Virus record (IMG/VR): IMGVR_UViG_3300012665_001166
Span: 1 to 56,488 of that record
Reading direction: 5' to 3' (one strand)
DNA length: 56,488 nucleotides
From: a virus
Taxonomy: Duplodnaviria > Caudoviricetes
Shown in pieces: positions 14,341 to 54,763 of the stretch. How positions within the stretch are numbered: the stretch's first letter is position 1; every line of letters begins with the position of its first letter. A program made the translations under genes and the position numbers. The notes under the pieces were generated by a model. That model made no database searches, was not told where the DNA came from, and saw only the letters and a list, made by a program, of their open reading frames with translations.

Positions 14341-14881
14341 TAGTATCTGTGATACGTTTCCTGAACATCCAGGGAATAGAATACTAAGAGGAGATTGTTA
14401 TTTTGAGTTTGATCTTAGGTTTACTTTAAGAGAAGAACCAGTAGAGAGAAAAACAATATTTGCACTACTTCCTAAATACACAGGATTAGATATCCATTCA
14501 GAAGGAATGGTTTTTGCATATACGACAGAAGATGAGACCTCTTATGTAAACTTACCCGCACTAATTAAAGTAGGTGAAGAAGTGTTATTGACAGTAGAAC
14601 ATCAACCAAATAAGTATTTAAGAATATTTATTAATAAGGAACTAATTGAAGAGATTAATTTAGATAATAAGGTTTTTGGTTTAGACGATAGCCCGCATAT
14701 TATATTTGGTGCAGGTAATTTTCCTAAAAACAATTTTAACCTAAACTATACAAGTTTAGATCTTCACGAATTTATATTAAAAGGAATAACAGGAGTACTA
14801 TCTCATCATACTTTTGAGGAGTTTATATTTGATAAGTCTGTTGATATTTCCGGTAACCTAAATTTTATACACAAGTTATAA
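14297..14881 (+). CDS. Stand-alone LamG/ConA-like beta-sandwich protein (putative)
   Basis: Beta-rich, with LRIFINKELI, IIFGAGN and VDISGN segments like the LamG inserts upstream. Confidence 0.45.
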   Translation: MLKLKTGEPWVFWPSSICDTFPEHPGNRILRGDCYFEFDLRFTLREEPVERKTIFALLPKYTGLDIHSEGMVFAYTTEDETSYVNLPALIKVGEEVLLTVEHQPNKYLRIFINKELIEEINLDNKVFGLDDSPHIIFGAGNFPKNNFNLNYTSLDLHEFILKGITGVLSHHTFEEFIFDKSVDISGNLNFIHKL

Positions 14882-16503: not shown

Positions 16504-16504
16504 A

Positions 16505-20272: not shown

Positions 20273-21255
20273 GTAAAAAAGTCTCTACAGACTATGAAAT
20301 AGTTCGTAACGAATATGATATATTTGCTGAAATAGAAAGACTAGGTAAAGCACATATACTGTTTGACTCAGAAGGTATAAAAAGTACGAAAGACATTCAG
20401 CTATATTCACAAACCTTACTAAACCGTTCGATACTGGGGGCTTCTATGAACGCGTTAGAATCATTTACAGTTAGGTATACCTCTGAAGAAGAAAAAGAAG
20501 CCTGTCTAGAAGCTAAGAAAAAAGGTACAACTAATATAGAAGAAGAGACAGTTAGGTATACAATAAGCCCGTTAGGTTACAGATTGACTAACCCGTTAGA
20601 CAGTATACATAGATCTACAGGTATATTTGGATGTAGTATTACATATGGAATAGGTATTCCTGAAGACCAAACATTTAGTCACTTACTGCAAGAGAATTTA
20701 AAAACCCCTGTCCATAATTTTGGAATACCAGGTGGTTCTATACAGAAAATTAGAAAATCTTTTATATCAATAAACAACTACTATAAGTTGGAAACAGCTA
20801 TACTTGTACTACCCTCTATGAGCAGGTTTGAATTTATAGGAAAAGAACCAGTAGATAAAGTAGATACTTTGTACTCAGAAGGATACGTACCTGCATTTAA
20901 CCCTATTAACCCTGCTCGAAGAGGTTTTTACGAAGCACTTTATACATACTATCAAGATATAACATTTTTCGATGAGTTTAGTAAAAATTTACAATTAATA
21001 AAACTAAACGCGCAGATAAACGGTACAAAGCTTTACCTTTTTACATGGGATTATGTATTACTAAATCTAGCAACTCACTATAAAATTACAGGCTTGGAAA
21101 ATAGCCCTCTTGTTCGTTTTATAGAGAATGACGAACTACAAAGAGGAGAAAAGGTAGTTGATTTCGCTCGAGATGGAATGCACCCGGGATTAAGATCTCA
21201 GAAAAGTATTACAGATTTAATTCTAAGAAAATTAGGAAAGGGTAATTTGATATGA
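20254..21255 (+). CDS. SGNH/GDSL-like hydrolase or acyltransferase
   Basis: FGCSITYG (block I), NFGIPGGS (block II) and DGMHP (DxxH, block V). Confidence 0.7.
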   Translation: MENVNIGKKVSTDYEIVRNEYDIFAEIERLGKAHILFDSEGIKSTKDIQLYSQTLLNRSILGASMNALESFTVRYTSEEEKEACLEAKKKGTTNIEEETVRYTISPLGYRLTNPLDSIHRSTGIFGCSITYGIGIPEDQTFSHLLQENLKTPVHNFGIPGGSIQKIRKSFISINNYYKLETAILVLPSMSRFEFIGKEPVDKVDTLYSEGYVPAFNPINPARRGFYEALYTYYQDITFFDEFSKNLQLIKLNAQINGTKLYLFTWDYVLLNLATHYKITGLENSPLVRFIENDELQRGEKVVDFARDGMHPGLRSQKSITDLILRKLGKGNLI

Positions 21256-22064
21256 GAATAATACAAAGCTTTGTACCTACTTCTTATCAAACAGATTTTG
21301 AAGCATATCTTAGAATGACAGAAGTATCTGTAGAGTCTATTTTAAAGTACCATGATGAAGTAATATTATACACAACTCCAGAAGTTGCAGAATTAGTTAA
21401 AGAAAGAGGTATAGGTTATACAGATATAAATGTAGAATTGTTTAAAGAGGTTGAAAACATACCTCTAAGTAACTATGCAATACCTAAGATACTTTGTTAC
21501 CTAGCACAAAACAAACCGTTTATACATTTAGATTACGATGTAGTGTTACTTAGTAGGCTTATTACACCTAAAGATTTCTTAATAGGGTACTACGACTTTG
21601 ACTTAGTGAATAGAGAAACTAAGCCAACAGACCTAAACACATTGAGTGACTACTACTTAAAAGATCTTGTACAGATACATGAACATCTTCCACCTGAGGT
21701 GCAAAATACAGTGGATTTAAGGTTCTTACCAAATTTTTCAATATTCGGTGTTAATAACCTTAATCTAAATAAAACTATCTTTAAAAGTATACTAACATTC
21801 TACCATAACAATATAGAATCTTTTAAGCAGCTAAATCATGCTCCAAGTATGGTAGAGCAGTTTTTATTTATAGTATACCTCCTTTATTTTTTAGATCGAC
21901 AAAAAACATTAGAGGAAGTTATCACTGTAGTGGAAAAGTGTAATATTGCACCACAGGAGTACCTTAACGGCCATAAGCACTTTGCTAACTTCTTACACCT
22001 ACATTCCGAAAAATACGACTCAGAGTTTTTAATAAAGCTAGACAAGTACATAAATGACAAATAA
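21252..22064 (+). CDS. DUF6734-like protein, putative GT-A fold transferase
   Basis: YAIPKILCYLAQNKPFIHLDYDV, VEQF and HLH motifs; parallels 7508..8362. Confidence 0.55.
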   Translation: MRIIQSFVPTSYQTDFEAYLRMTEVSVESILKYHDEVILYTTPEVAELVKERGIGYTDINVELFKEVENIPLSNYAIPKILCYLAQNKPFIHLDYDVVLLSRLITPKDFLIGYYDFDLVNRETKPTDLNTLSDYYLKDLVQIHEHLPPEVQNTVDLRFLPNFSIFGVNNLNLNKTIFKSILTFYHNNIESFKQLNHAPSMVEQFLFIVYLLYFLDRQKTLEEVITVVEKCNIAPQEYLNGHKHFANFLHLHSEKYDSEFLIKLDKYINDK

Positions 22065-22710
22065 GAAAGCGATTATTATATCCGGACTTCTTTATAATCT
22101 CTCAGATAACTTTATAAAATTTATAGAAGATCTAGGGGAGGAAGTACATACATACGTACATACCTGGAACACCCCAGATAATCTAAGATGGGTTAATAAG
22201 TTGATGAGATATCAACATAAGACTAGAATTACAATTAACATGGAAGTTCCAATGTACGAAGAGAAGAAGTATCTAATACTACACTCTACGTACCAAGCTG
22301 CAAACTTAGTAGATAACTTACACGACTACTCTACTATTATTAAATTTAAACCAGATTTAGAAACAGACCGCATAGAGTATAATAAGAATGTAGAACAGTA
22401 TTTCATAGAAGCTGCTATACATGCACATCCGTTACTAAATGGTAGAAAGAAAGAAGAGTTTGTCTATGGAAGGTACTTATACAAGACATTAGATGAAAGA
22501 ATGTTTACCGCTTATCCGGAAGGTATAGAAAAGCTATTTCATAGAAGCTATACAGATTTTTTTGACGATATATACGGACTTGATTCTTACCTTAAAAAAA
22601 AATATACGGAAAACTACGAAGGGAGCATCCTTTGGACTAATTATATAAAAGAAAGAAAGCTAGGAATTATACAAGACCTAACTCTTAAATTACCAAATTG
22701 TAAAAACTAA
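22054..22710 (+). CDS. Hypothetical protein, possibly glycosyltransferase-like
   Basis: KKAIIISG...YVHTW...YSTIIKFKPDL pattern recalls uncharacterised proteins of polysaccharide loci; weak. Confidence 0.45.
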   Translation: MTNKKAIIISGLLYNLSDNFIKFIEDLGEEVHTYVHTWNTPDNLRWVNKLMRYQHKTRITINMEVPMYEEKKYLILHSTYQAANLVDNLHDYSTIIKFKPDLETDRIEYNKNVEQYFIEAAIHAHPLLNGRKKEEFVYGRYLYKTLDERMFTAYPEGIEKLFHRSYTDFFDDIYGLDSYLKKKYTENYEGSILWTNYIKERKLGIIQDLTLKLPNCKN

Positions 22711-23107: not shown

Positions 23108-24853
23108 ATGGCAGAAACATTAATTTCACCAGGTGTATTAACGAGAGAAAATGATATTTCGTTCATCCAACCACAAGCGGCTGCAGTAGGTGCAGCGTTT
23201 ATTGGTCCAACAGTAAAAGGCCCGGTAGAGCAACCTACAGTAGTAACTTCTTACGGACAGTACCAAAGATTATTTGGAACCACGATTGCATCTGGTTCAA
23301 ATAGCTATGAGTATTTAACATCAGTTGCAGTAAAGAGTTACTTCGAACAAGGAGGAAACACAGCATTAGTAACTAGAGTAGTATCTGGTTCTTACACAGC
23401 TGCTTCTAACACAACTTTAGCTACAGCAGGTGGATCAGTTACTAACCCTTTCCGTTTAGAAACATTAGGAAAAGGAGACATATACAATAACGCAACAGGT
23501 TCAAACGCCGGAACAGCTGTAACAAGTACAGACGGTTCAATTGCTTTAGGTAAAACAGATAATATCAGATTCGAGATTACAAATGTTAATAGCGATAACG
23601 GTACATTCTCATTGTTAGTACGTAGAGGGGATGATAGTGCAAAGAACAAGATTATCTTAGAAACCTTTAATGATTTATCATTAGATCCAAACTCAGAAAA
23701 CTACATCGAGAGAGTAATCGGTAACCAAGCTGTATCTAAAACAGTTGAAGGTTCAGAAGTATTCGTAAGCGTAACTGGAGAGTATGCTAATAAGTCTAAT
23801 TACATTAGAGTAAGTGCGGTAAATAACCCAACTTTAAACTACTTAGCAAATGACGGTATAACTGTTAATAACAGCTATGACGATTTACTTCCAACAGCAC
23901 AGTTGGGATACTTCTACGGCGCTGCAGGTACTGCATTCCCAGGAGGTAGAAAAGCTAACTTCTTTAAGAATATCACAAACGTAGATACACAAGGTTTAAT
24001 AGCAACTAACTATGCAGATGCTATCTCAATCTTAAATAATAAAGACGAATACCAATTCAATATTGTAACAGCACCAGGTCTTATTTATGACTTCGGTACT
24101 CACAAGACACAATTAGATTCTATCATCTCATTAGTAGAGGGTAGAGGAGATGCAATTGCAGTAATTGACTTAGAGCAATATGGTGCAACAGTATCAAACG
24201 TAACAACAGCAGCAGGAACAGTTAACTCTTCTTATGCAGCTTCTTACTGGCCTTGGTTACAAACTCAATCTTCTACAGGTAAGAACGAATGGGTTCCTGC
24301 TTCAACAGTTATACCAGGAGTTTATGCTTTCACTGATAGTGCAGCTGCTCCATGGTTCGCTCCAGCAGGTTTAGTTAAAGGAGGTATTCCTAACGTAATC
24401 CAAGCAGAACGTAAAGTTAGCCGTGAGCAACGTGACTTATTATATCGTGCTAATGTTAACCCAATTGCTACATTCCCTGGACAAGGTATTGCAGTATACG
24501 GTCAGAAGACTTTACAGAAGAAAGCTTCAGCTTTAGATAGAGTAAACGTACGCCGTTTATTAATCGAATTGAAACGCTTCATCGGAGGTCAAGCTAACAA
24601 CTTAGTATTCGAACAAAACACAATCGCTACAAGAAACAAATTCTTAGCAGTAGTTAATCCTTACTTAGAATCAGTAGTTCAACGTCAAGGTTTATACGCT
24701 TACAGAGTTGTAATGGACGATTCTAACAATACAGCTGATATCGTAGATAGAAATCAGATCGTAGGTCAGATCTTTATCCAACCAGCTAAGACTGCAGAAT
24801 TCGTAGTACTTGACTTCACAATCGAACCAACAGGTGCAACTTTTGTAGCATAA
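23108..24853 (+). CDS. Contractile tail sheath protein
   Basis: SPGVLTREND, GPTVKGPV, PWFAPAG, NPI, VYGQKTLQ, LDRVNVRRLL and IQPAKTAEFV motifs. Confidence 0.95.
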   Translation: MAETLISPGVLTRENDISFIQPQAAAVGAAFIGPTVKGPVEQPTVVTSYGQYQRLFGTTIASGSNSYEYLTSVAVKSYFEQGGNTALVTRVVSGSYTAASNTTLATAGGSVTNPFRLETLGKGDIYNNATGSNAGTAVTSTDGSIALGKTDNIRFEITNVNSDNGTFSLLVRRGDDSAKNKIILETFNDLSLDPNSENYIERVIGNQAVSKTVEGSEVFVSVTGEYANKSNYIRVSAVNNPTLNYLANDGITVNNSYDDLLPTAQLGYFYGAAGTAFPGGRKANFFKNITNVDTQGLIATNYADAISILNNKDEYQFNIVTAPGLIYDFGTHKTQLDSIISLVEGRGDAIAVIDLEQYGATVSNVTTAAGTVNSSYAASYWPWLQTQSSTGKNEWVPASTVIPGVYAFTDSAAAPWFAPAGLVKGGIPNVIQAERKVSREQRDLLYRANVNPIATFPGQGIAVYGQKTLQKKASALDRVNVRRLLIELKRFIGGQANNLVFEQNTIATRNKFLAVVNPYLESVVQRQGLYAYRVVMDDSNNTADIVDRNQIVGQIFIQPAKTAEFVVLDFTIEPTGATFVA

Positions 24854-43962: not shown

Positions 43963-45678
43963 ATGGCACTACAAGTAGATACTTCCACCTGGGAAGCAGG
44001 AAAAGATTATCCTGAATGGATGAATGAAATTTCTTTATCAACAATATCAAAAGGATATCTCCTACCAGGAGAGACTCCTCGAAAAGCATATAAACGAGTA
44101 TCAGATACAGTAGCAGCACGATTAGATCGACCAGATTTAGCTGCTAAGTTCTTCAAGTATATGTGGAAAGGTTGGTTAAATTTAGCTTCTCCAGTTTTAT
44201 CTAACACAGGTACTGATAAAGGTTTACCTATTTCTTGTTTTGGTATTGATACTCCGGACTCTATTAGGGGTATTGGATTAACAAATGCTGAATTAATGAG
44301 ATTGACTTCATTAGGAGGTGGTGTTGGTATTGGTCTTTCTAAAATTAGAGGAAGAGGATCTAAAATCGGTAATGGAGATTTAGGACAATCAGAAGGAGTT
44401 ATTCCTTGGGCTAAGATATACGACTCTACTATCATTGCGACTAATCAAGGAGCAGTACGTAGAGGAGCAGCTTCCGTAAACTTAGATATTAACCATCCAG
44501 ATATTAAGGAATTCCTACAGATTAGACGACCTAAGGGAGATCCTAATAGACAGTGTCTAAACCTACATCAATGCGTTGTAGTGGATGATAGCTTTATGCA
44601 AAAGATCGAGCGTAGAGACCCTGAGGCAATGGAAGTCTGGGTAGAAATACTAAAGGCTAGAGTAGAGACAGGAGAACCTTATATTATGTTTAAAGATAAT
44701 GTAAATAACGCTAACCCTCCTGCATATATTAAGAATAATTTAGAAGTAACTATGACGAACATCTGTTCGGAAATTACTTTACATACTGACGAAGAACATA
44801 GTTTTATTTGTTGTCTAAGCTCAGTTAATTTAGCTAAATGGGATGAATGGAAAAACACAGATTTAGTTGAGACTGCAATCTACTTCTTAGACGGAGTAAT
44901 GGAAGAGTTCTTAGTTAAGACTAACGGTAAAGAATCCTTAATTAGAGCTCATCGTTCTGCTAAAAAAGGTAGAGCAATTGGCTTAGGTGTGCTAGGATGG
45001 CATACATTATTACAAGAGAAAAAGATTCCTTTTATTAGTATTGCAGCAAATAGCTTAACACATCAGATCTTCTCTCAAATTAAATCACAAGCAGAAGCTG
45101 CTTCTAGAAAGTTAGCAGATGAATACGGAGAACCAGTTTGGTGTAAAGGTACAGGTATGAGAAATACGCACTTGTTAGCAATTGCTCCGACAGTATCTAA
45201 CTCAACTATCTCAGGAGGTGTATCAGCAGGTATCGAGCCTTTACCGGCAAACATCTATACATTTAATTCAGGAAAGGGAACTTTTATTCGTAAAAATCCT
45301 GAACTAGAAAACTATTTATTAGAGAGAGGTCACAATACAGACGAAGTATGGGATCAGATTATGAAAGATAGAGGTTCTATTGCAAATCTACCAGAAGATG
45401 TTATGCCTACAGAAGATAAACCAATCTTTTTAACATTTGCTGAAATTAACCAATTACAGTTAGTAGAACAAGCAGCAATTCGTCAACAGTATATAGATCA
45501 GACTCAATCTTTGAATTTAGCTTTTGATCCAACAGATAGTCCTAAATTTATCAATTTAGTTCACCAGACGGCTTGGAAGTTAGGAATAAAAACCTTATAT
45601 TATTTAAGAACAGATTCTGTAATCAATGGAGACATTGGCAGTAGAACAGCAGAAGACTGTGTAGCTTGCGACGGATAA
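43963..45678 (+). CDS. nrdA: Ribonucleotide reductase class I alpha subunit (short, no ATP cone)
   Basis: ASPVLSN, PISCF, TNICSEI, AIAPT, KTLYY and C-terminal CVACDG. Confidence 0.95.
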   Translation: MALQVDTSTWEAGKDYPEWMNEISLSTISKGYLLPGETPRKAYKRVSDTVAARLDRPDLAAKFFKYMWKGWLNLASPVLSNTGTDKGLPISCFGIDTPDSIRGIGLTNAELMRLTSLGGGVGIGLSKIRGRGSKIGNGDLGQSEGVIPWAKIYDSTIIATNQGAVRRGAASVNLDINHPDIKEFLQIRRPKGDPNRQCLNLHQCVVVDDSFMQKIERRDPEAMEVWVEILKARVETGEPYIMFKDNVNNANPPAYIKNNLEVTMTNICSEITLHTDEEHSFICCLSSVNLAKWDEWKNTDLVETAIYFLDGVMEEFLVKTNGKESLIRAHRSAKKGRAIGLGVLGWHTLLQEKKIPFISIAANSLTHQIFSQIKSQAEAASRKLADEYGEPVWCKGTGMRNTHLLAIAPTVSNSTISGGVSAGIEPLPANIYTFNSGKGTFIRKNPELENYLLERGHNTDEVWDQIMKDRGSIANLPEDVMPTEDKPIFLTFAEINQLQLVEQAAIRQQYIDQTQSLNLAFDPTDSPKFINLVHQTAWKLGIKTLYYLRTDSVINGDIGSRTAEDCVACDG

Positions 45679-45691
45679 AAAAATAAACTAT

Positions 45692-46954
45692 ATGGAAAGA
45701 TTGTACGTAGGAAATGAGCACGGATTAGAAATGTTTACTATTCCACAGTTCCTAACTAGCGAAGAATGTGATCATATTGTCAGGTTAACAGAGAACGGGA
45801 GCACCCGATCAAGTGTGGCCGGTACTGGAACACAGTCTATTAAGTACGATGAAGGTCGTACTAGCTCTACAGCGGTGCTACTTGATACAGACCCAATCGT
45901 GAGTCAAGTAAATCAAAAAATGTACACAGAGTTAGGGATAGAAGGACCTTATTCAGAACCAACCCAAGGACAGATTTACGAAGTAGGTCAAGAATTTAGA
46001 CACCACCAGGATGCTTTCGGTAAAGACGCATACCACAATCACTGTTTATCAAGTGGCCAAAGAACTTGGACATTTATGATATATCTTAACGATGTAGAAG
46101 AAGGCGGTGAAACAGATTTTCCTACTATTGGGAAAACTTTTACCCCTCAGAAAGGAATGGCAGTTGTTTGGAAGAATTCAAACGGTACCGGGACTGAAAA
46201 CTCTGCTGCTTTGCATGCAGGTTTACCTGTAAAAAGAGGTAGAAAGGTTATTATTACCAAATGGTTTAGAGAAAATGTATTTAATAGTGCAGAAGATGCT
46301 AGATTAGCAAAAGAATACCTAGAAATGACACAACCTCAGCAGATAACACAACCTACCGAAAAAGTATTCTCTAAAAGTGAAGATTTACCAAAATTATCTG
46401 AGTTAGGATTTAAAGTAGTAAAAGTACCTCAAAAAACTTTTCAATTAATACAGGAAGCTTATAATTTACTAAAACCTAGTGTTAGACCGGAAGAGTGGGG
46501 AGGTATTACAAACTTTATACACGATAATCAAGGTAATGCACCGGTAGAGATTTTCCCTATGGATTCTTTTACTAGGATAAGAGAAATAATCGCAGAAGAA
46601 CTACAACCACTCCATGAAGAGTTTATAGGTAATAAAGAAAGATTAATTCCTAAATGGATTTACGGTATTAGATCTTATAAAAGAGGAGCTATACTAGAAC
46701 CACATACAGATACTTTAGTAACTCATCATATTTCTTCTATAGTAATTGTGGATAAACAAGTAGATAGAGATTGGCCCTTAGACATACAAGACCACTTGGG
46801 GAGATGGCATAAAGTTTACGCAGAAGCAGGAGAAATGATTTTATATGAGTCTGCTACAAATAAGCATGGCCGAATCGAACCTTTTGAAGGTGAGTACTTT
46901 AGAAATTTCTTCTTACATTATACATTAGCAGATTATAAATTTGTAGCACAGTAA
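45692..46954 (+). CDS. Prolyl 4-hydroxylase-like protein with two tandem 2OG-Fe(II) dioxygenase domains
   Basis: Domain 1: FLTSEEC, RTSS, Y..GQEFRHHQD, GQRTWTFMIYLNDVEEGGETDFP, LHAGLPV, KVIITKW. Domain 2: YGIRSY, LEPHTD, WPL, GEMILYES, HGR, NFFLHY. Confidence 0.88.
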   Translation: MERLYVGNEHGLEMFTIPQFLTSEECDHIVRLTENGSTRSSVAGTGTQSIKYDEGRTSSTAVLLDTDPIVSQVNQKMYTELGIEGPYSEPTQGQIYEVGQEFRHHQDAFGKDAYHNHCLSSGQRTWTFMIYLNDVEEGGETDFPTIGKTFTPQKGMAVVWKNSNGTGTENSAALHAGLPVKRGRKVIITKWFRENVFNSAEDARLAKEYLEMTQPQQITQPTEKVFSKSEDLPKLSELGFKVVKVPQKTFQLIQEAYNLLKPSVRPEEWGGITNFIHDNQGNAPVEIFPMDSFTRIREIIAEELQPLHEEFIGNKERLIPKWIYGIRSYKRGAILEPHTDTLVTHHISSIVIVDKQVDRDWPLDIQDHLGRWHKVYAEAGEMILYESATNKHGRIEPFEGEYFRNFFLHYTLADYKFVAQ

Positions 46955-49708
46955 ATGGACTATATTGTTGTTGGAACTAGTCGGTGTGAATACCAAGCAT
47001 GGCAGATAAAGTTACTACACTGGTCATTAAAAAAAGTAAATCAAAAAGGTAAATTAGTAGTTTTACTTTCCGGAGATTACGGACATAGAGACGAAACACC
47101 TGATTTTAGTTTTTTATCAGACGCAATAGTAATAGATCAACCAGATTATGCACACTTGTGGCAAGTAGCTAACAACGATTGGTGGGGTGGTATTCCTAAT
47201 AAGTATAGATCTGTAGAATGGTTATGTGAAAATAACTACTTCAAAGAAGAAGATAAGCTTCTATTCTTAGATCCTGATATGGTGTTTACTAAATCAGTAG
47301 ATTTTGATTTAGAAGATGATCATATAATTGGGCAAGACTTTATACATTACATGCCACTTAATGGATGGGAAGATCGAGATAAAGATCCTCTCAATACTAA
47401 AGGAATAATGTACCCTTTTGCTTTGAAATTTAAGACTTTAAAAAAGTTTTATAAGAAGTATACAGAATACTGTGAACAGATCCGTAAAAAAGAAGGTAGA
47501 TGGGAAGCCGAGATGTGGGGATTAGATTATGCTATAAAGGACTCTAATATTAAAGTAGAACTTGTACAGGATATCGGCACCTGTACAGCATGGAATGACC
47601 GCGAAAGAAATATACTAGGAAGTATTATGCATTACCCTAATGTAATACCGGATAAAGAAGGTAATACGTTATTTTTTAAACAAGATCATACTTTCGATCA
47701 AAAAAAGAAGTACGATTTATCTCAAACAACTAGCGAAGCAGGAAATAAAATGGTTACTGGAGTTGATCAATTTAGAACAGATTATGTTTACTATACAAAA
47801 TGGAATTTTGAAAGCATTTTTAAATTCTACGACGGTAGTAAAGGTTATATAGTTTTTAGACCCTGGCCAGGAGGTTTTAATAATATAAGAATGTCATTAG
47901 AGCTAGCAGTTTGTATAGCTTACTTAACAAACCGAAAATTAGTATTAACACCAGAGTATAAAATGTATCTCTTAGAAGGACACTCTAGTATGGAGTCGTT
48001 TTTTGATACCTCTAACCTAGGAGTAATCTCTATTCCGTTTGATAATTTCTGTAAAGAGAAAGGATTAGATGCTAATTACGAAAGTGTAAAAGCAGTATCT
48101 AAAGTACTAGACTACGACGCAGTAAGACATGTAATAAACTTTGAAAAAGTTCCAGTTCCTACTAAGTTTTCAAAACATCGCCCAGTACTTAACAAAGAAG
48201 ACCTTTATACAGGTGAGGAATACTTATTCTTAGAGTCGAATTTACTAGGAGTAACACATCAGACTTTATTTACTAGTTTAGATGTAGAAATTAAAAAACT
48301 TATTGCAAAATATGTACACTATCGAACAGATATTTTTGACTTAGCTTGGCAGTTTATTAATAAATTAGGTGATAAGGAGTATTATTCTATTCATATTAGA
48401 CGAAATGATTTCCAATATAAGGAGTTGTTTATTCCTTGCGAACAGATACTAGAAAATATAAAAGATGTAATTCCGCAAGGAAGTAAGCTGTATATAGCAA
48501 CAGATCATAGAGATCGAGAATTTTTTAAACCATTATCTGAATACTATCAGACATTTTTTTACGAAGATGTAAAAAAAGAAGTAGCTATTTTTACCGAGTT
48601 TGATAATAACTGGATTCCAATTATAGAACAGTTTATATGTACTAGAGGTATTAAGTTTATAGGTAATAGTCATTCAACATTATCTTCTTACATTTACCGA
48701 ATGAGAGGATATATGTCAGATATTGAGGATAAAAATTACTACCTTAATACAGAAACATTTGATCAACATAAACAAATACCTTTTACAGCTGATACACAGT
48801 TTAAAGGGAACTGGTTTAGAGAATATAATGATAGTTGGAGTTTTGGCAACGGAAGTATATTTGTATCAATTGCAAGTTATTGTGATTCTCAGATCATAGA
48901 CACATTAAAAAGCCTATACTCAGAAGCTATAGACCCTAGTAGAGTACACGTAGGAGTTAATCTACAAGATACAGAGGAAGCATACGAAAAGCTAAAGCAA
49001 CTTAACTTTCCAAATTTAAAGATAATATTTACACCTAAAGAAGAAGCAAAAGGTGTTGTATATGCTAGAAATAGAATAAAAAATGAGCTCGTAGGAAATG
49101 AAGATTATTTCTTACAGATAGATTCACATAGTAGATTTAGACAAGCTTGGGATGCAATTTTAATAAATCAGTATAATAGTATAGAAGAAGGTAAGGTAAT
49201 ATTAACCACATATCCTAATCATTTTGACGTCCCAGATTATGAAAAAAAGTATTTAGATAAATCAAATAATACCCCATTACGTATTAGAAGGTTTTTGCAA
49301 GAATCGAGTAACAACGACAACAGGCATATAGCTGAAAATTTACCTACGTTAGAAGACTATAAGGTAGCAGAGACTAGATGGGCTGCTGCAGGATTTTTAT
49401 TTACTAGAAGAGAATGGTTGGAGGAAGTAAAGATACCGAATAATATAAGATTTAACGGAGAAGAAGATTTTCAAACATTTCTCAGTTACTTAAAAGGCTG
49501 GAACTTACGAATTACATCTTTAGCAACAGTGTGGCATAATTACGACTTTAAAACATCTGATACAGATGAACCGTATAGAGAACACAACACTAAGTACTTT
49601 ATAGACGATACAGCAATAGACTTAGTTAATGATTTTCTATTTAACCAAACCCACACACGAACATTAGATGATTTAGAAAGTTATTTTAATATAAAATTAA
49701 AAAGGTAA
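46955..49708 (+). CDS. Tri-domain glycosyltransferase: GT95/GT96-like + O-fucosyltransferase-like + GT60-like
   Basis: N: YQAWQIKLLHWS, PNK, LDPDMVF, WEAEMWG. Middle: GGFNNIRMSLE, HIRRNDF, LYIATD, IEQFIC...FIG..HSTLS. C: IFVSIASYCD, YFLQIDSHSRF..WD, AAGFLF, FNGEE. Confidence 0.78.
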   Translation: MDYIVVGTSRCEYQAWQIKLLHWSLKKVNQKGKLVVLLSGDYGHRDETPDFSFLSDAIVIDQPDYAHLWQVANNDWWGGIPNKYRSVEWLCENNYFKEEDKLLFLDPDMVFTKSVDFDLEDDHIIGQDFIHYMPLNGWEDRDKDPLNTKGIMYPFALKFKTLKKFYKKYTEYCEQIRKKEGRWEAEMWGLDYAIKDSNIKVELVQDIGTCTAWNDRERNILGSIMHYPNVIPDKEGNTLFFKQDHTFDQKKKYDLSQTTSEAGNKMVTGVDQFRTDYVYYTKWNFESIFKFYDGSKGYIVFRPWPGGFNNIRMSLELAVCIAYLTNRKLVLTPEYKMYLLEGHSSMESFFDTSNLGVISIPFDNFCKEKGLDANYESVKAVSKVLDYDAVRHVINFEKVPVPTKFSKHRPVLNKEDLYTGEEYLFLESNLLGVTHQTLFTSLDVEIKKLIAKYVHYRTDIFDLAWQFINKLGDKEYYSIHIRRNDFQYKELFIPCEQILENIKDVIPQGSKLYIATDHRDREFFKPLSEYYQTFFYEDVKKEVAIFTEFDNNWIPIIEQFICTRGIKFIGNSHSTLSSYIYRMRGYMSDIEDKNYYLNTETFDQHKQIPFTADTQFKGNWFREYNDSWSFGNGSIFVSIASYCDSQIIDTLKSLYSEAIDPSRVHVGVNLQDTEEAYEKLKQLNFPNLKIIFTPKEEAKGVVYARNRIKNELVGNEDYFLQIDSHSRFRQAWDAILINQYNSIEEGKVILTTYPNHFDVPDYEKKYLDKSNNTPLRIRRFLQESSNNDNRHIAENLPTLEDYKVAETRWAAAGFLFTRREWLEEVKIPNNIRFNGEEDFQTFLSYLKGWNLRITSLATVWHNYDFKTSDTDEPYREHNTKYFIDDTAIDLVNDFLFNQTHTRTLDDLESYFNIKLKR

Positions 49709-49709
49709 T

Positions 49710-51257
49710 ATGTTTAATTTAGGTTTTTTTGGATCACATAACGGTAGTTTAGCTATCTCTTTTAAAGGAGAGGTTCTAGAAGTAGTGGAACTTGAACGTT
49801 TGATTAACGTAAAGAATGCTGCTTTCTTTTACTGGGGACATCATGATAATATAGTAGAACTATTAACGGAAATTAAAGACTACTTTAAAACAAAATACGG
49901 AGTAGAAAAATACGATAACGTAATATACAACTCAGTAGATAAAGAGATGTGGAAAATATTCCCAGCTAACAATTACCAGTGGGTACCTCATCATGAAGCT
50001 CATGCTTATTCCGGACTATACCAATCTAACTACGACAAGGCTTTGATTATATCTTTCGACGGAGGTAGTGATGAAGGTTTTTTTAATATCTACTTAGGAG
50101 ATAAAAACAGCGATATACCTGTAGATAAAATTTATGTAGGTAAAAAAGACTATGCAGTTTCTTATATGATGCCTGCTCACTTTATCTCAGATATAAAACA
50201 AGAATGGATATACACAGGTAATTTAGTATACGCCGGAAAGCTAATGGGATTAGCCGGCTTTGGAAAAGTAGATCATAACCTTATTCAATCTTTCAGAGAT
50301 TTTTACTCTTCCAACACAACAGACAACATAAGTGAGGCATTAACTCGCTTTATGAAGATATTCAATATAGAATCGGAACAGACACGATTTGAAGGTACCT
50401 ATGCAGTTAACTTAGCCGCTACTAATCAGTATGTTTTTGAGCAGTTATTTGAAGAAGAAACAAGAAACATCTTAGAACTTCACAATAATCTTCCGCTTAT
50501 TATTACTGGCGGATGCGGATTAAACATACTACTAAATACTAAGTTAGCAAAACAAAGAGAAACTTTCGTTACTCCTAACCCAAACGATACAGGCTTAGCA
50601 GTAGGGTTAGTTTGTAGTAAAATAAAACCATATACTCCGGTAGACACAACCTACATAGGCCCAGAAGTATGGGATAGAAAGTTACTACCTAAAGTATTAC
50701 ACGATAGAAAAGGTATTAAGATAGAAATAAAAGAGGTAGTACAAAAGCTAATAGATGGTGAAATTATAGGAGTAGTAAGAGGTAAGTCTGAACACGGACC
50801 AAGAGCTTTAGGAAATAGAAGTATTATATGTGACCCAACAATTGGAGAAATGAAAGATACTTTGAATGCTAAAGTGAAAGGAAGAGAGTATTATAGACCT
50901 TTCGCACCGGTAGTTAGGTTAGAAGATATTAATAAGTATTTTAACTGGGATAAAGAGTCTAGATGGATGTCTTTCTGCCCTGAAGTTAGAGAAGAATACA
51001 AAGGTATATTAAAAGCTATCACCCACGTAGACGGAACCGCTAGAGTACAGACAGTTACAAGAGAACAAAATGAATTCCTTTACGACTTATTAACAGAAAT
51101 GCATAATCAAAAAGGTATTGGAGTAATTTTAAATACATCTTTTAATATAGCAGGAAAGCCTATACTGAATACATATGAAGATGCCCTTTGGGTATTAGAT
51201 AATAAACAAATGGATGGTGTCTTATTAGAAAACTACTATATTAAGAAGAATGGATAA
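49710..51257 (+). CDS. O-carbamoyltransferase (NodU/CmcH/TobZ family), copy 1
   Basis: HHEAHA, DGG, GKLMGLA, EHGPRALGNRSI, REYYRPFAP, HVDGTARVQTV and LNTSFN motifs. Confidence 0.93.
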   Translation: MFNLGFFGSHNGSLAISFKGEVLEVVELERLINVKNAAFFYWGHHDNIVELLTEIKDYFKTKYGVEKYDNVIYNSVDKEMWKIFPANNYQWVPHHEAHAYSGLYQSNYDKALIISFDGGSDEGFFNIYLGDKNSDIPVDKIYVGKKDYAVSYMMPAHFISDIKQEWIYTGNLVYAGKLMGLAGFGKVDHNLIQSFRDFYSSNTTDNISEALTRFMKIFNIESEQTRFEGTYAVNLAATNQYVFEQLFEEETRNILELHNNLPLIITGGCGLNILLNTKLAKQRETFVTPNPNDTGLAVGLVCSKIKPYTPVDTTYIGPEVWDRKLLPKVLHDRKGIKIEIKEVVQKLIDGEIIGVVRGKSEHGPRALGNRSIICDPTIGEMKDTLNAKVKGREYYRPFAPVVRLEDINKYFNWDKESRWMSFCPEVREEYKGILKAITHVDGTARVQTVTREQNEFLYDLLTEMHNQKGIGVILNTSFNIAGKPILNTYEDALWVLDNKQMDGVLLENYYIKKNG

Positions 51258-52155
51258 TACAATTTTTATATCTATTGCTAGTTTTATAGACACAGACTTA
51301 AGAAACACTATACTAAGCTGTATCAACCAAGCTAAACACCCAGAAAAACTTTCTTTTGGGGTTGTATTACAGTACAACAACGAAGAGAGCACTAACGAAA
51401 CTTGTATAGATGATTTAATTAATAAGTACAATATTAGAATAAAGAAATACTGGTTTGAAGAATCTAAAGGAGGATGTTGGGCTAGAAATCAGGTAACTAC
51501 TTTATACCAAAATGAAGACTACATACTTCAGTTAGATGCACATATCAGGATGGTTAAAAACTGGGATGTACTTTTGGTTAAAGAGTATTTAGAATTAAAA
51601 AAAACTGTTAATAAACCGCTACTTTCTTACTTATCACCATCATTTTTTAGAAATGAAGAGTTAGGGTTAGACTACAACTTTAGACATATAGATGATCCAT
51701 ACATTATAAATGTACCTACAATAAAGTCTATTACCGCTGATTACTGGCCTGTGTTTGGAGGGTATGAAGACGAAGCCCATACAAATAAAAAACCTAATAA
51801 TGTATCTTTACTTTACGCCGGTTTTGTATTTACTCAAGGAAGCTGGTTGTTAGAAGTAAAAAATGACCCAGAACACTACTACACAGGAGAAGAATTTGCT
51901 TTATCAATACGATCATTCACTCACGGGTATAATATTTATATACCGAGTCAGATAATGTCTTGGCATTTATCTAGATCTAATCATATACATCATTTCAAAG
52001 TACTAGATGGTAATAAAAACCATATCAAGGCAATGGAACGACTTTATAAACTTATATTTGGAGGAGATTTAGATGAATACGGATTAGGGACTGAGAGAAC
52101 ATTACAGCAATATGAAGAATTTGCAAAAATTAATATAAAAGAAAGAAAAATATGA
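51250..52155 (+). CDS. GT60-like GlcNAc transferase (Gnt1-type), stand-alone
   Basis: IFISIASFID, SKGGCWARN, YILQLDAHIR..NWD, YAGFVF, YYTGEE and YGLGTERTL motifs. Confidence 0.82.
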   Translation: MDNTIFISIASFIDTDLRNTILSCINQAKHPEKLSFGVVLQYNNEESTNETCIDDLINKYNIRIKKYWFEESKGGCWARNQVTTLYQNEDYILQLDAHIRMVKNWDVLLVKEYLELKKTVNKPLLSYLSPSFFRNEELGLDYNFRHIDDPYIINVPTIKSITADYWPVFGGYEDEAHTNKKPNNVSLLYAGFVFTQGSWLLEVKNDPEHYYTGEEFALSIRSFTHGYNIYIPSQIMSWHLSRSNHIHHFKVLDGNKNHIKAMERLYKLIFGGDLDEYGLGTERTLQQYEEFAKINIKERKI

Positions 52156-53723
52156 ACATACTAAGTGTGTTTTTAGGACACAACGCATCAATGACCATTT
52201 CAAAAGATGGAGAGATATTAGAAGTCCTAGAATTTGAAAGACTAACTAATGTTAAAAACGGCGGTTGTTTAGCTCAAGTAGGAGTTAAAGATCCTAAAGT
52301 TATTATGACATTAATTAAGGATCACCTAATGGGAAAATTTGGGGTAAAGCATTTTGATTTACTACTTCTTAACCAGATAGATCTTTCTTTTTTAAGAAAA
52401 CAACATTTCACTACAGATACAGAATTATTAAAATTTTTTAATGCAGAAAGGTATGAATTAGTTAATCATCAACATGGACATATGGCTTGCGCTTTCTACC
52501 AATCTTCGTATAATAGTATAAGAGGATGTAGCTTTGATGGCGGCGGTAATGATGGTAATTTTAACATATTCGACTGTTCTAGAGAAAGCGGAATTAGACA
52601 GATAGCACAGATACCTAACCATACTTTAGGAATGAGATTAGCAGAACTAGGTCAGTATACCAAGTCGCTAAGAAGAGAAAGAGACTTTTGGACAGACGGA
52701 GGTTTAGTATACCCCGGTAAACTTATGGGACTATCCTCATACGGTAAAGTAGTAGATGAATGGCTTCCAGCATTTGAAGAATTCTACTCAGGAGTTTATC
52801 ACTCCAGTGATCTACACGCAAACTACAAAAGACTAAAAGAAAAATTAAATTTACCCGACGAATACGAAGGAGAACTAGAAGTTAATTTAGTAGCTACTTC
52901 ACAAAGAATGTTTGAAGAAAAGTTTGATAAATTAGTAAGACCTTATTTCGAAAATCAGAATTCATTTATAATCACCGGAGGGTCAGCTTTAAATATAATT
53001 AATAATCAACGTTTATCTAAAGAAAGACAAATATTCGTTCCACCTAATCCAAGTGACTGTGGTTTATCTTTAGGATTTATGTTAGATTACTTAAAACCTA
53101 AAACTGCATTTAACGGAACCTATATGGGACCTGAAGTTTGGGATAAATCAATGTTGACAGAGTATGTAGAAAAGTATAACGGTAAGAAGTATAGCTTTGA
53201 TGATATCATCCCAGACTTAATAGCAGGGAAAATTATAGGAGTAGTACGTAAAGGGTCAGAATTAGGACCAAGGGCATTAGGTAATAGAAGTATAATCTGT
53301 CATGCCGCTATACCAGGGATGAAAGATATCTTAAATGCAAAGGTTAAAAATAGAGAAGCATATAGACCATTTGCTCCTGTTTGCCGACTAGAAGATTCTT
53401 ATCAATATTTTGATATTAAGAACACAGACAATAAGTGGATGTCATTTTGCCCTGATGTAAGACCAGAATATAGAGGTATATTATCTTCAGCAACACATGT
53501 TGACGGAACCGCCCGACTACAAACAGTAACTCAGTCGCAAAATGACTGGTTATTTTACTTACTAACCAGATTTAAAGATTTTAATCCTCATCCGGTGTTA
53601 CTAAATACATCTTTTAACATAGCAGGTAAGCCAATATTAAACAGTTACCGAGATGCAATCTGGATGTTAGAAAATACTCAAATGGATGGATTAATATTAG
53701 AAGATTATTATATAAAAAAATAA
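52152..53723 (+). CDS. O-carbamoyltransferase, copy 2
   Basis: HQHGHM, DGGG, GKLMGLS, ELGPRALGNRSI, RPFAP, HVDGTARLQTV and LNTSFN motifs. Confidence 0.93.
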   Translation: MNILSVFLGHNASMTISKDGEILEVLEFERLTNVKNGGCLAQVGVKDPKVIMTLIKDHLMGKFGVKHFDLLLLNQIDLSFLRKQHFTTDTELLKFFNAERYELVNHQHGHMACAFYQSSYNSIRGCSFDGGGNDGNFNIFDCSRESGIRQIAQIPNHTLGMRLAELGQYTKSLRRERDFWTDGGLVYPGKLMGLSSYGKVVDEWLPAFEEFYSGVYHSSDLHANYKRLKEKLNLPDEYEGELEVNLVATSQRMFEEKFDKLVRPYFENQNSFIITGGSALNIINNQRLSKERQIFVPPNPSDCGLSLGFMLDYLKPKTAFNGTYMGPEVWDKSMLTEYVEKYNGKKYSFDDIIPDLIAGKIIGVVRKGSELGPRALGNRSIICHAAIPGMKDILNAKVKNREAYRPFAPVCRLEDSYQYFDIKNTDNKWMSFCPDVRPEYRGILSSATHVDGTARLQTVTQSQNDWLFYLLTRFKDFNPHPVLLNTSFNIAGKPILNSYRDAIWMLENTQMDGLILEDYYIKK

Positions 53724-53727
53724 ACAT

Positions 53728-54726
53728 ATGAAAACAGCATTAGTACTTGGTGCCGGTGGTTTTATCGGTTCACATTTAGTTACAAGATTAAAATCAGAAG
53801 GATATTGGGTAAGAGGTGTAGATATCAAGAAACCAGACTTCTCAGAATCAACAGCAGACGATTTCGTTATTGCAGATTTAAGAGATCCTTTAAAAACATC
53901 TTTGGTAATGTATTCACCTCAACAGGTATCTGCAGCTAGAGCAGGAATGACTCACAGTTTTGATGAAGTTTACCAATTAGCAGCTGATATGGGAGGAGCT
54001 GGTTATATTAACACAGGAGAACATGACGCTGATGTAGTTCATAACTCAATGTTAATAAATCTTAATGTATTAGACCAAGCTTACAAGAAAAACGTTAAAA
54101 AGATCTTCTATGCATCGTCTGCATGCGTATATAACGAACATAACCAGTTAGATCCTGAAAATCCTAACTGTAAAGAAGATTCAGTATACCCAGCTCAACC
54201 AGATTCAGAATACGGATGGGAAAAATTATTTTCAGAACGATTATATACAACTTATAACCGCAACCACGGTATAGATGTTCGAATTGCCCGTTTTCATAAT
54301 ATTTTTGGACCAGAAGGTACATTTGATGGTGGAAAAGAGAAAGCACCAGCAGCTATATGTCGTAAAGTTGCAAGCACACCGACAAACGGAGAAATAGAGG
54401 TATGGGGTGATGGATTACAGACTCGTTCATTCCTGTATATTGATGAAGCAATAGAAGGAGTTCGTCGTCTAATGAATTCAGACTATAAAGAACCAATTAA
54501 TATAGGATCAGAAGAGATTATCTCAATGAATGGGTTAGCTAACTTAGTATCTAAATTAGCAGGTAAGACTATTAATATTAAAAATATACCAGGTCCACAA
54601 GGAGTAAGAGGTAGGACATCAGACAACACTTTGATTAAAGAGAAGTTAGGTTGGGCACCAACACAACCATTACATATAGGTTTAACAGAAACTTATAAAT
54701 GGATAGCAAGTAAAATAGAGTCTTAA
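53728..54726 (+). CDS. NAD-dependent epimerase, GDP-mannose 3,5-epimerase-like
   Basis: GAGGFIG, LAADMGG.GYI, SSACVY, YGWEK, GGKEKAPAAICRK and GVRGR.SDN motifs. Confidence 0.85.
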   Translation: MKTALVLGAGGFIGSHLVTRLKSEGYWVRGVDIKKPDFSESTADDFVIADLRDPLKTSLVMYSPQQVSAARAGMTHSFDEVYQLAADMGGAGYINTGEHDADVVHNSMLINLNVLDQAYKKNVKKIFYASSACVYNEHNQLDPENPNCKEDSVYPAQPDSEYGWEKLFSERLYTTYNRNHGIDVRIARFHNIFGPEGTFDGGKEKAPAAICRKVASTPTNGEIEVWGDGLQTRSFLYIDEAIEGVRRLMNSDYKEPINIGSEEIISMNGLANLVSKLAGKTINIKNIPGPQGVRGRTSDNTLIKEKLGWAPTQPLHIGLTETYKWIASKIES

Positions 54727-54730
54727 TTGC

Positions 54731-54738
54731 TATTTATA
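54731..54738 (+). promoter_or_regulatory. TATTTATA motif before the Pro-rich gene
   Basis: Intergenic, 25 nt before the ATG at 54764. Confidence 0.55.
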
Positions 54739-54763
54739 AAATATAATTAATTAGTAGAGGTAG

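Follow-up and report, generated by a model that had tools for sequence, protein, structure and literature searches.

The Skp1 pathway of Dictyostelium, Toxoplasma and Pythium modifies hydroxyproline (Hyp) with soluble enzymes, namely the prolyl 4-hydroxylase (P4H) PhyA, the GT60 enzyme Gnt1 and further glycosyltransferases (GTs). In the accessible part of PMC8724618, the pathway's enzymes are described as cytoplasmic and often fused into multi-domain proteins, and GT60 as a family of polypeptide α-GlcNAc-transferases that is related to GT27 and includes a cytosolic enzyme acting on Skp1 Hyp. Mucin-type O-glycosylation similarly employs GT27 polypeptide GalNAc-transferases (ppGalNAc-T) or protist GT60 polypeptide α-GlcNAc-transferases, and plant and green-algal HRGPs involve P4Hs, HPAT (GT95) enzymes and AGP-type AP/SP/TP modules. 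Mycobacteriophages encode GTs that modify the phage's own structural proteins. Among O-carbamoyltransferases, NodU and NolO carbamoylate different hydroxyls of one GlcNAc, and the known sugar carbamoylations (NodU, NolO, TobZ and NovN) follow glycosyl transfer.

The window analysed here comprises 56,488 nt of an uncultured tailed phage (Caudoviricetes; IMG/VR record IMGVR_UViG_3300012665_001166), approximately 32% of a genome. In it, nrdB and nrdA (ribonucleotide reductase large subunit; 43963–45678, + strand; Pfam Ribonuc_red_lgC, 4.7e-101), which lie outside the cassette and serve as context only, precede a co-transcribed cassette predicted at 45692–56488, with all genes on the + strand and successive gaps of 0, 1, −8, −4, 4 and 37 nt from 45692 onward. 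As the row of enzyme genes stands directly before a gene for a Pro/Thr-repeat protein, the phage probably sugar-coats its own fibre-like proteins and adds carbamoyl groups. Protein is the best-supported target, and we assign a probability of roughly 0.6 to the reading, drawn from sequence, that the cassette tailors the phage's own Pro/Thr-repeat proteins in the host cytoplasm to yield a carbamoylated O-glycan. An earlier note had proposed carbamoylation of protein-linked GlcNAc; the P4H, the polypeptide-type GTs and the repeat-protein neighbour favour its protein target, and GlcNAc and carbamoylation remain predictions.

The cassette opens with a 420-aa double 2OG-Fe(II) dioxygenase (45692–46954, +), and it is this hydroxylase-like gene that begins 13 nt after nrdA, as the note had said of the cassette. 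The protein matches PF13640 in the Pfam scan (63.5 bits, E 3.9e-17). Its N-terminal half is P4H-like, and its C-terminal half is a second, phage-type dioxygenase (residues 304–414; phrog_2954, 1.6e-16). All nine solved relatives are P4Hs, led by those of B. anthracis (5iax, 7.8e-25) and human C-P4H alpha-2 (7zsc, 1.8e-20) and including those of PBCV-1 (5c5t, 8.3e-17) and Chlamydomonas (2jig). Furthermore, the catalytic columns (H-x-D, the distal His and Lys) line up with those of the solved P4Hs: HHQD pairs with AHYD, LHAG with LHGG, and K190 falls on the conserved 2OG-binding Lys. By its sequence the head gene is a genuine P4H homologue, with P4H activity predicted. Lineage B, which includes a record estimated to be 89% complete, lacks a PF13640 hydroxylase and retains the small second dioxygenase alone, so hydroxylation of proline is optional. 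In Atlas, the nearest clusters of the window's dioxygenase bear prolyl 4-hydroxylase-type names (score 0.92), which we treat as no more than a lead.

The next gene (ORF 46955–49708, +) encodes a 917-aa protein carrying three GT domains. The N-domain (46955–47824) bears an invariant LFLDPDM (DxD) motif, and its AF2 model (pLDDT 85.9) retrieves generic retaining GT-A enzymes in Foldseek, the top matches being LgtC (1g9r, 4.3e-8), the GT6 ABO/BoGT6a enzymes and glycogenin at TM ~0.5, with a GT8-like fold. HPAT is absent among the solved chains listed in that search, and the window's own N-domain has no match to HPAT PF23452 at E ≤ 1. PF23452 does match two of six phage orthologues of the domain (best 2.4e-6; L017, 27.6 bits against a cut-off of 23.9) and the bacterial homologue L124 (1.2e-9, 38.4 bits); the domain in the window is possibly HPAT-like. 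The middle, O-FucT-type domain (47846–48715; PF10250, 1.1e-24) spans residues 298–587 and is present in all six orthologues. The C-terminal domain, GT60a (48848–49549; residues 678–865), matches the GlcNAc family PF11397 with 127.6 bits (1e-36; cut-off 21).

A stand-alone GT60 enzyme of 301 aa, GT60b (51250–52155, +), matches PF11397 more strongly (152.4 bits, E 3e-44; curated cut-off 21). All Foldseek PDB matches of its AF2 model (pLDDT 92.7) listed through rank 34 are polypeptide GalNAc-transferases of GT27 (best 1.5e-11, TMq 0.57–0.68). GT60a and GT60b are paralogues (30% identity over 247 columns) that have D-x-H and later W/H columns in common; D96, H98 and H239 are invariant in all 25 aligned GT60 sequences, and we take D-x-H to be the metal motif. 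GT60b belongs to GT60 by its Pfam match, its GT27-related GT-A fold and its D-x-H plus later His. GT60-like genes are common in bacteria, and since none of the 479 relatives is characterised, polypeptide specificity in bacterial and phage members is extrapolated from the eukaryotic enzymes. In one orthologue, GT60a also gives a weak match to a TET-associated GT (2.1e-4, 21.8 bits), below the cut-off of 27.5.

The two genes flanking GT60b encode CT1 (515 aa; 49710–51257, +) and CT2 (523 aa; 52152–53723, +), the latter starting 4 nt before the end of GT60b. Both carry Carbam_trans_N (PF02543; CT1 61.8 bits, 1e-16; CT2 46.7 bits; cut-off 24) and Carbam_trans_C (PF16861; CT1 204.1 bits, 1.5e-60; CT2 183.1 bits, 4.1e-54; cut-off 27), and by these domains they are NodU/CmcH/TobZ-family O-carbamoyltransferases, with the same two-domain architecture as NodU/NolO, TobZ, NovN and GdmN. 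With CT1 as the query, the nearest solved enzymes (5e-47 to 1e-35), among them 7xb6 (5.2e-47), NovN (9s2t, 1e-41), GdmN and TobZ, all transfer carbamoyl to hydroxyl groups of small molecules or sugars. CT1 has the same PHHxAH, GPRALGNRS, (Y/F)RPFAP and NTSFN sequences as the solved 7xb6, which are presumably the active-site motifs of the solved carbamoyltransferases; CT2 shares the last three, and its first motif, NHQHGH, keeps the spaced histidines alone. NodU/TobZ-type enzymes act on a lipo-chitooligosaccharide or an antibiotic, whereas the acceptor of CT1 and CT2 is probably a phage-made protein-linked glycan, a class of O-carbamoyl acceptor for which a literature search found no documented case. 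The presence of two paralogues in one pathway resembles the NodU and NolO pair. PHROGs classes these carbamoyltransferases and GTs as auxiliary metabolic genes.

The order GT60 domain, carbamoyltransferase, GT60, carbamoyltransferase, described earlier, is borne out by the Pfam matches across 46955–53723; the interval then given for it, 49710–53723, holds CT1, GT60b and CT2, and the first GT60 domain lies upstream, at ~48848–49549. The suggestion that this order reflects a duplicated two-gene unit is not supported. CT1 and CT2 are paralogues with 44% identity over 526 columns, and CT1 is closer to the carbamoyltransferase of Synechococcus phage S-SCSM1 (54%); the two appear from sequence to be members of two old sub-lineages. 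GT60a is the most distant of the 25 aligned GT60 sequences. Interleaving of GT60 and carbamoyltransferase genes is confined to the lineage of the window; in other lineages GT60a and GT60b stand side by side or are fused, and a single carbamoyltransferase usually accompanies them. The interleaved order would instead come from placement of CT1 between the multi-GT gene and GT60b.

Gene orders across phage lineages point to a link between GT60b and CT2. The two genes lie side by side in lineages A, B, D, E and F1, with CT2 directly after GT60b in most lineages. In L007, L011, L012 and L013 both are replaced together (~50% identity each), and CT1 and the epimerase stay 86–98% identical. On these comparisons GT60b–CT2 behaves as a unit, exchanged as a whole between close relatives, consistent with one enzyme working on the product of the other. 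Carbamoyltransferases are accessory, since cassettes without any exist (L066, L070–L073), and CT1 need not be coupled to GT60 products, since in L018 a CT1-type enzyme occurs alongside GT2-type transferases in the absence of any GT60. A GT77-like enzyme is an optional gene in the cassettes of some relatives.

Downstream of CT2 lie an NAD-dependent nucleotide-sugar epimerase/dehydratase (53728–54726, +; PF01370, 2.9e-40; phrog_540, 1e-76) and the candidate substrate, a Pro/Thr/Ala-repeat protein cut by the contig end (54764–56488, +). Its translation contains (VTPAP)n, (TAAP)n and TPSP arrays at residues 192–310 and 400–559, and its DNA has tandem repeats of period 15, 39, 57 and 72. None of its 108 prolines are contiguous (TP 35, AP 39, SP 16, PP 0). 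The full-length orthologue in L007 has 966 aa, and two further proteins of this kind are encoded after it. Despite differing gene orders, 7 of 11 cassette lineages have a repeat-protein gene in the locus on the same strand, compared with 5 of 51 non-cassette viral GT60 loci (615 kb; Fisher p 3.8e-4); the lineages are not fully independent, and the thresholds, like the bacterial leader motif below, were set after seeing examples. Lineages D (three loci) and G (five loci) have no repeat-protein gene within the 13–21 kb covered, despite their hydroxylase and GTs.

In bacteria, GT60b-like, dioxygenase, O-FucT-like and N-domain-like genes also cluster. Small ORFs that combine PT repeats with a conserved RR..AWVAPV leader accompany 20 of 35 loci with the dioxygenase and 1 of 42 without it (p 3.5e-8), and the P4H of L124 carries a fused PqqD peptide-recognition domain. 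Carbamoyltransferases are near-absent from these clusters (1 of 77), so the bacterial comparison leaves carbamoylation unsupported.

For the substrate, the order of steps, the sugars and the carbamoylated site, we infer the following scheme, in which 49710–53723 would be the tailoring part of the cassette. The double dioxygenase would hydroxylate prolines of the non-contiguous AP/TP/SP repeats, and the GT60 enzymes would begin O-glycans on Hyp and/or Thr. The GT-A DxD domain and the O-FucT-type domain, and in some relatives the GT77-like enzyme, would extend these or add sugars, with the epimerase providing a nucleotide sugar. CT1 and CT2 would then O-carbamoylate two different hydroxyls or two different sugars of the glycan at the expense of carbamoyl phosphate and ATP, CT2 probably acting on the sugar that GT60b, its constant neighbour, attaches. 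The cassette products look soluble, and the lack of any hydrophobic 19-mer above KD 1.25 or of signal-like N-termini suggests that they all act in one compartment.

That solubility bears on an unlikely reading in which the cassette remodels a host envelope glycan (LPS core or O-antigen, capsule or S-layer), for example to block superinfection, and the carbamoyltransferases modify polymer sugars beside a repeat protein that is a mere neighbour. The Pseudomonas LPS core bears carbamoylated heptose, carbamoyltransferases from cultured cyanophages and from a pelagiphage are found within clusters of nucleotide-sugar and GT genes (GDP-fucose genes in S-SCSM1, UDP-glucose dehydrogenase and NadE in Bellamy and HTVC008M, heptose genes in P-SSM2), and the PHROGs class would suit such a role. 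However, no membrane protein, flippase, polymerase or lipid-carrier transferase is encoded in the cassette; a prolyl hydroxylase would have no role on a polysaccharide, the polypeptide GalNAc-transferases are the closest folds to GT60b through rank 34, and the repeat-protein linkage holds in both phages and bacteria. It is rather improbable that protein is the target but that the carbamoyltransferases act on a nucleotide-sugar precursor, a free metabolite or directly on a Hyp or Thr hydroxyl. Acceptors in the family are diverse (novobiocin, geldanamycin and tobramycin among solved relatives, and 5hmC in the part of PMC8670742 available), and the L018 arrangement and the CT-less cassettes would suit such a role; against it, GT60b and CT2 stay adjacent and are exchanged as a pair, and the precedents for sugar carbamoylation act after glycosyl transfer.

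Hypermodification of phage DNA, in which a hydroxylated base would be glycosylated by the GT60-like enzymes and/or carbamoylated, as in 5-carbamoyloxymethylcytosine, is disfavoured on sequence grounds and very improbable. The note had raised it from the closeness of nrdA, and the cassette does follow nrdB–nrdA, but beyond the window's lineage that adjacency recurs in L066 alone, and five other lineages have the cassette among tail-fibre genes. Yang et al. (2021, eLife; PMC8670742) reported a phage-encoded 5hmC carbamoyltransferase of the same superfamily as CT1 and CT2, which, in the part of that paper available, co-occurs with a thymidylate-synthase-like hydroxymethylase and deaminases; no such hydroxymethylase partner was found for CT1 and CT2, PF00303 being unmatched in the window and in all five related records (completeness 47–89%, the fullest estimated at 89%). 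Tet_JBP likewise matched in none of the five, although its control also matched nowhere. The weak TET-associated match of one GT60a orthologue favours DNA, whereas the dioxygenase is P4H-type, not TET-type, and the DNA GT-A enzymes in the published account, as far as available, have other motifs and 5mYOX or ThyS partners. The phylogeny against phage DNA carbamoyltransferases that the note had called for used proxies encoded beside dCMP hydroxymethylase/thyA (Bacteroides phage BF486P3 and Acinetobacter phage MD-2021a), with the PMC8670742 enzyme outside the tree. These match the window's enzymes over the C-half only (26–30%), and in a quick tree a branch 2.99 changes per site long (SH-aLRT 100) lies between them and all other rows, placing them very far from CT1 and CT2.

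With protein tailoring as the preferred reading, the cassette resembles the Skp1 pathway in its soluble P4H, GT60 and additional GTs, its GT8-like fold and its optional GT77-like gene. Membership in that pathway was rejected: Pfam scans of the window found no Skp1-like gene, and the candidate substrates encoded nearby consist of long PT/PA repeat arrays. Carbamoyltransferases are absent from the Skp1 pathway, and the phage P4H is nearest to collagen-type, Bacillus and PBCV-1 enzymes. The ppGalNAc-T-like catalytic fold of GT60b and the dense Pro/Thr/Ser repeats recall mucin-type glycosylation, but the phage system has no lectin domain or secretory pathway and adds a prolyl hydroxylase and carbamoyltransferases. 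With HRGPs it shares a P4H, with that of chlorovirus PBCV-1 among its solved relatives, and non-contiguous AP/TP/SP repeats, and some orthologues give the HPAT-like match; unlike HRGPs, its proteins have neither signal peptides nor a Golgi setting. The glycosylation of mycobacteriophage virions differs in using other GT families and neither a hydroxylase nor a carbamoyltransferase.

More tentatively, and with somewhat less than even confidence, the fibre-like proteins may carry Hyp- and/or Thr-linked glycans whose HexNAc is O-carbamoylated at two positions by the two enzymes, with GT60b–CT2 as an exchangeable 'serotype' module diversifying the virion's sugar coat and the CT-less core as a bacterial PT-repeat system. 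If so, carbamoyl-HexNAc (+246 Da) would be a protein modification undescribed for any organism and a new protein-glycan chemistry, extending O-carbamoyltransferases to protein-linked acceptors. Tailed phages would build a eukaryote-like hydroxyproline/mucin-type glycoprotein, carbamoyl-decorated, in the bacterial cytoplasm, paralleling in prokaryotes the Skp1 pathway of protists and the HRGP pathway of plants, and the CT-less hydroxylase–GT core would be a widespread, uncharacterised bacterial system glycosylating exported PT-repeat proteins. As the enzymes are soluble and clustered, they would be testable in E. coli and usable there for glyco-engineering. A possible role would also follow for many genes of aquatic phages that still lack an explanation, among them those annotated 'Nol-like carbamoyltransferase', 2OG-oxygenase and GT.

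The window, with a GC content of 31–41%, is an entire IMG/VR contig and makes up an estimated ~32% of the phage genome. Besides tail fibres, sheath, tube and baseplate parts, its genes specify gp32, DnaB, a RecA-like protein, nrdB/nrdA and a fragment of a family-A polymerase. On the + strand, 13 nt downstream of nrdA (43963–45678), lies a cassette that begins with a 420-residue 2OG-Fe(II) dioxygenase (45692–46954) and a 917-residue multi-glycosyltransferase (multi-GT) protein with Pfam O-FucT and GT60 domains (46955–49708). These are followed on the same strand by the carbamoyltransferase CT1 (49710–51257), the stand-alone GT60 protein GT60b (51250–52155), the carbamoyltransferase CT2 (52152–53723), an NAD-dependent sugar epimerase (53728–54726) and a repeat-protein ORF that runs past the contig end (54764–56488). 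The intergenic gaps are 0, 1, −8, −4, 4 and 37 nt. The previously noted order of GT60 domain, carbamoyltransferase, GT60, carbamoyltransferase is real, both by gene and by Pfam domain (46955–53723). The interval originally assigned to it, 49710–53723, contains CT1, GT60b and CT2; the first GT60 domain (GT60a) falls outside, in the 46955–49708 protein. Megablast found no cultured-phage matches to the cassette.

The earlier note read this order as a duplicated two-gene unit. Tandem duplication of a GT60–carbamoyltransferase unit is rejected on sequence identities, the carbamoyltransferase tree and differing gene orders in related loci. CT1 and CT2 are 44% identical; the carbamoyltransferase of Synechococcus phage S-SCSM1 is 53.7% identical to CT1 and just 37.9% to CT2. 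In a quick IQ-TREE analysis of 34 phage carbamoyltransferases, with SH-aLRT as the sole support and several long branches flagged as unsafe, CT1-type enzymes and the S-SCSM1 enzyme form one group (SH-aLRT 99), which next joins the Bellamy, XacN1 and Stenotrophomonas CM1 enzymes (SH-aLRT 93), and CT2-type enzymes fall into separate groups. GT60a and GT60b are 30% identical. In a 25-sequence alignment, no rows lie farther from GT60b than those of GT60a (23–26% identity), and unrelated viral GT60 genes share 28–37% identity with it.

A multi-GT gene is present in 28 of the 80 viral loci retrieved by the GT60 profile, and among these 28 a carbamoyltransferase separates it from GT60b only in the eight loci of the window's lineage. 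Other lineages have GT60a next to GT60b or fused to it, as one ORF of 1207–1228 residues in loci L038, L040, L041 and L051, and a single CT2-type gene follows. The order in lineage B is epimerase, multi-GT, GT60b, CT2-type, a 260-residue ORF and CT1-type. Five loci (L066 and L070–L073) have no carbamoyltransferase in the examined locus DNA. The multi-GT gene of locus L012 (7246–9996) has an in-frame stop, and that of locus L008 (7125–9858) was recovered by tblastn in two pieces (query residues 1–570 and 576–917); both may reflect decay or assembly errors.

GT60b and CT2 do behave as a unit. The two genes adjoin or overlap in lineages A, B, D, E and F1, and lie one gene apart in loci L052 and L046. 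In the related loci L007, L011, L012 and L013, CT1 and the epimerase are 86–98% identical to those of the window, but GT60b and CT2 are each only ~50% identical; in the quick carbamoyltransferase tree, the window's CT2 groups with locus L005 and lineage D. In 5 of 20 CT1-derived loci, a 274-residue Nucleotid_trans (GT77-like) gene separates CT1 from GT60b. Given this GT60b–CT2 exchange and the optional GT77-like gene among close relatives, the variation resembles that of a glycan-serotype locus.

All nine solved-structure matches of the dioxygenase N-terminal half are prolyl 4-hydroxylases (P4Hs; best 7.8e-25), with which its H-x-D, distal His and Lys columns align. The C-terminal half falls within phrog_2954, a small phage dioxygenase family that includes the product of a 176-residue lineage B gene adjoining CT1 (3.5e-25). 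Atlas look-alikes of the dioxygenase are named P4H-type (score 0.92), a lead only. DUF6065 was considered as a dioxygenase relative and rejected as unrelated; lineages B and C encode a DUF6065 protein (2.4e-64) after the small dioxygenase, downstream of CT1 (L017 12723–13793; L018 12110–13687).

The modelled N-domain of the 917-residue protein (pLDDT 85.9) adopts a GT-A fold, nearest to LgtC, GT6 enzymes and glycogenin, and has an invariant DPD. The HPAT Pfam family has no match (E ≤ 1) in the window's N-domain and matches two of six phage orthologues, with 27.6 bits in L017 against a cut-off of 23.9. For the GT60b model (pLDDT 92.7), all Foldseek PDB matches listed through rank 34 are polypeptide GalNAc-transferases (best 1.5e-11); sequence and profile searches against solved structures gave no match, so that only the fold search yielded relatives. 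GT60 enzymes are described as polypeptide α-GlcNAc-transferases related to GT27, which start mucin-type glycans in protists and include a cytosolic member acting on hydroxyproline (Hyp) of Skp1 (PMC8724618, in the sections available). The nearest solved relatives of CT1 are the small-molecule O-carbamoyltransferases 7xb6, NovN, GdmN and TobZ. In all seven cassette products, hydrophobicity stays at or below KD 1.25 over every 19-mer, and no N-terminus resembles a signal peptide.

The repeat-protein ORF is a candidate substrate. It encodes a 194-residue domain, with no Pfam or PHROG family match and Atlas scores <0.9, followed by arrays such as TPAPTPAPTAAPTAAPVTPAP; its 108 prolines are all non-contiguous. 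The L007 orthologue has 966 residues and is followed by two further repeat proteins of 257 and 251 residues. With a criterion of ≥30% Pro within a 60-residue window in a same-strand ORF, and cassette loci sorted into 11 lineages, a repeat-protein gene was found in 7 of 11, often immediately adjoining the cassette's first or last gene, on a side that varies. None was found in the examined locus DNA of lineages D and G, and an (APTT)n protein in locus L049 passes with a 40-residue window only. Such ORFs occur in 5 of 51 cassette-free viral GT60 loci (615 kb), against 7 of 11 lineages (Fisher p 3.8e-4, a value that overstates independence because the lineages are related). The repeat protein adjoining the cassette in locus L054 (4406–5974) has globular inserts recurring three times between (PTPA)n arrays and ends in a collagen-like GPPGPPGPPGPPGVPGEP stretch.

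Bacterial relatives provide independent support for linkage between hydroxylase, glycosyltransferase and repeat protein. A scan of species-representative genomes, which used GT60 alignment A2 (A4 being too diverse), yielded 479 GT60b-profile relatives. By tblastn, homologues of the dioxygenase C-half occur in 35 of the 77 bacterial loci retained, O-FucT-like sequences in 21, N-domain-like sequences in 13 and the P4H N-half in 4. A carbamoyltransferase was detected by tblastn in 1 of 77, on a 2.6-kb contig of 29% GC that is probably viral. Small ORFs that pair a conserved leader (e.g. TRREVLSTAWVAPVILTVPL...AQ) with downstream PT-type repeats are present in 21 of 77 loci: 20 of the 35 with a dioxygenase match versus 1 of the 42 without (p 3.5e-8, for a leader motif defined after four examples had been seen). 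The leader is twin-arginine-like (..RR..AWVAPV..AQ), with PT/PA repeats after it, and these ORFs adjoin GT60-like, small-dioxygenase and O-FucT-like genes (L124 3599–4594; L128, L129, L137, L140–L142, L145, L146, L148, L150, L153, L156 and others). One carrier, L137, is the cultured bacterium Luminiphilus syltensis NOR5-1B. These loci look like an uncharacterised bacterial system modifying exported Pro-rich proteins.

A Paraglaciecola scaffold (L124) carries two leader-repeat genes, then a PqqD protein, a 1188-residue multi-GT protein (HPAT 38.4 bits, O-FucT, GT60), GT60b, an epimerase and a P4H-type protein fused to a PqqD peptide-recognition domain (RiPP recognition element; 12268–14055, minus strand). 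Alongside this fusion the cluster has a second protein with PqqD, plus an NTP_transf_5 protein. Among cellular copies of the cassette, the closest lies on a Saprospiraceae MAG contig (L127; 33% GC), which additionally encodes a sulfotransferase and PLOD-type GT, GT6 and GT77 domains. Downstream of the L007 repeat proteins (19846–21545) are two proteins with signal-peptide-like N-termini; together with the Saprospiraceae copy at a matching 33% GC, they weakly hint at a Bacteroidota host.

The cassette's closeness to nrdA had raised the alternative that its enzymes hypermodify DNA, a reading that is disfavoured. In the sections available of PMC8670742, the published 5hmC carbamoyltransferase is defined by a thymidylate-synthase-like partner; PF00303 is absent from the window and from five of five related records, one estimated to be 89% complete. 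Two cultured-phage carbamoyltransferases beside hydroxymethylase/thyA genes, used as proxies for the published 5hmC enzyme, lie very far from both CT1 and CT2. Tet_JBP (TET/JBP-type DNA hydroxylation) had no match in five related records, a weak negative since the control was equally silent. In five lineages the cassette or repeat gene adjoins S74-chaperone-domain tail-fibre genes, so the nrdA-side position is not a conserved feature.

O-carbamoylation of a protein-linked glycan is favoured instead. The protein-glycan target proposed in the earlier note is retained, on the P4H, the polypeptide-type GT fold and the linked repeat proteins, without the duplication. What the analysis shows is gene content, family, fold and linkage; the substrate, sugars and sites we infer. 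Repeat-protein prolines would be hydroxylated first, GT60 enzymes could then initiate O-glycans on Hyp and/or Thr, and other GT domains would extend them. Last, CT1 and CT2 might O-carbamoylate two positions, CT2 acting on the GT60b-added sugar. Literature searches by titles and abstract openings, with supplementary gene lists outside their scope, found no report of a phage P4H–GT (hydroxyproline) system; at the same depth, none of the matches listed was relevant to GT60 in phages. Nor did the search return O-carbamoyl groups on a glycoprotein O-glycan, or a phage tail fibre with glycosylated hydroxyproline, for which the matches listed concern collagen by title. Cyanophage studies list carbamoyltransferases and 2OG oxygenases, without a substrate in the sections available (PMC3037559).

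A carbamoyltransferase–GT60-like pair occurs in both Xanthomonas phage XacN1 and Stenotrophomonas phage CM1, at a distance of ~6.5 kb from a giant ORF that contains a Pro-rich stretch (L024 16754–17542; L120 17149–17556); the XacN1 ORF (203370–213311) is annotated as a hypothetical protein. The window itself carries a second tailoring cluster (7508–22710), between an S74-chaperone tail-fibre gene (3049–6435) and the sheath gene (23108–24853). It encodes two DUF6734 proteins, a methyltransferase, a GT2-like protein, two paralogous fusions of GT7 (β-4-GalT-like) with Laminin_G_3 (10116–12946) and five radical-SAM proteins in a row (12943–20272), one with a SPASM domain.
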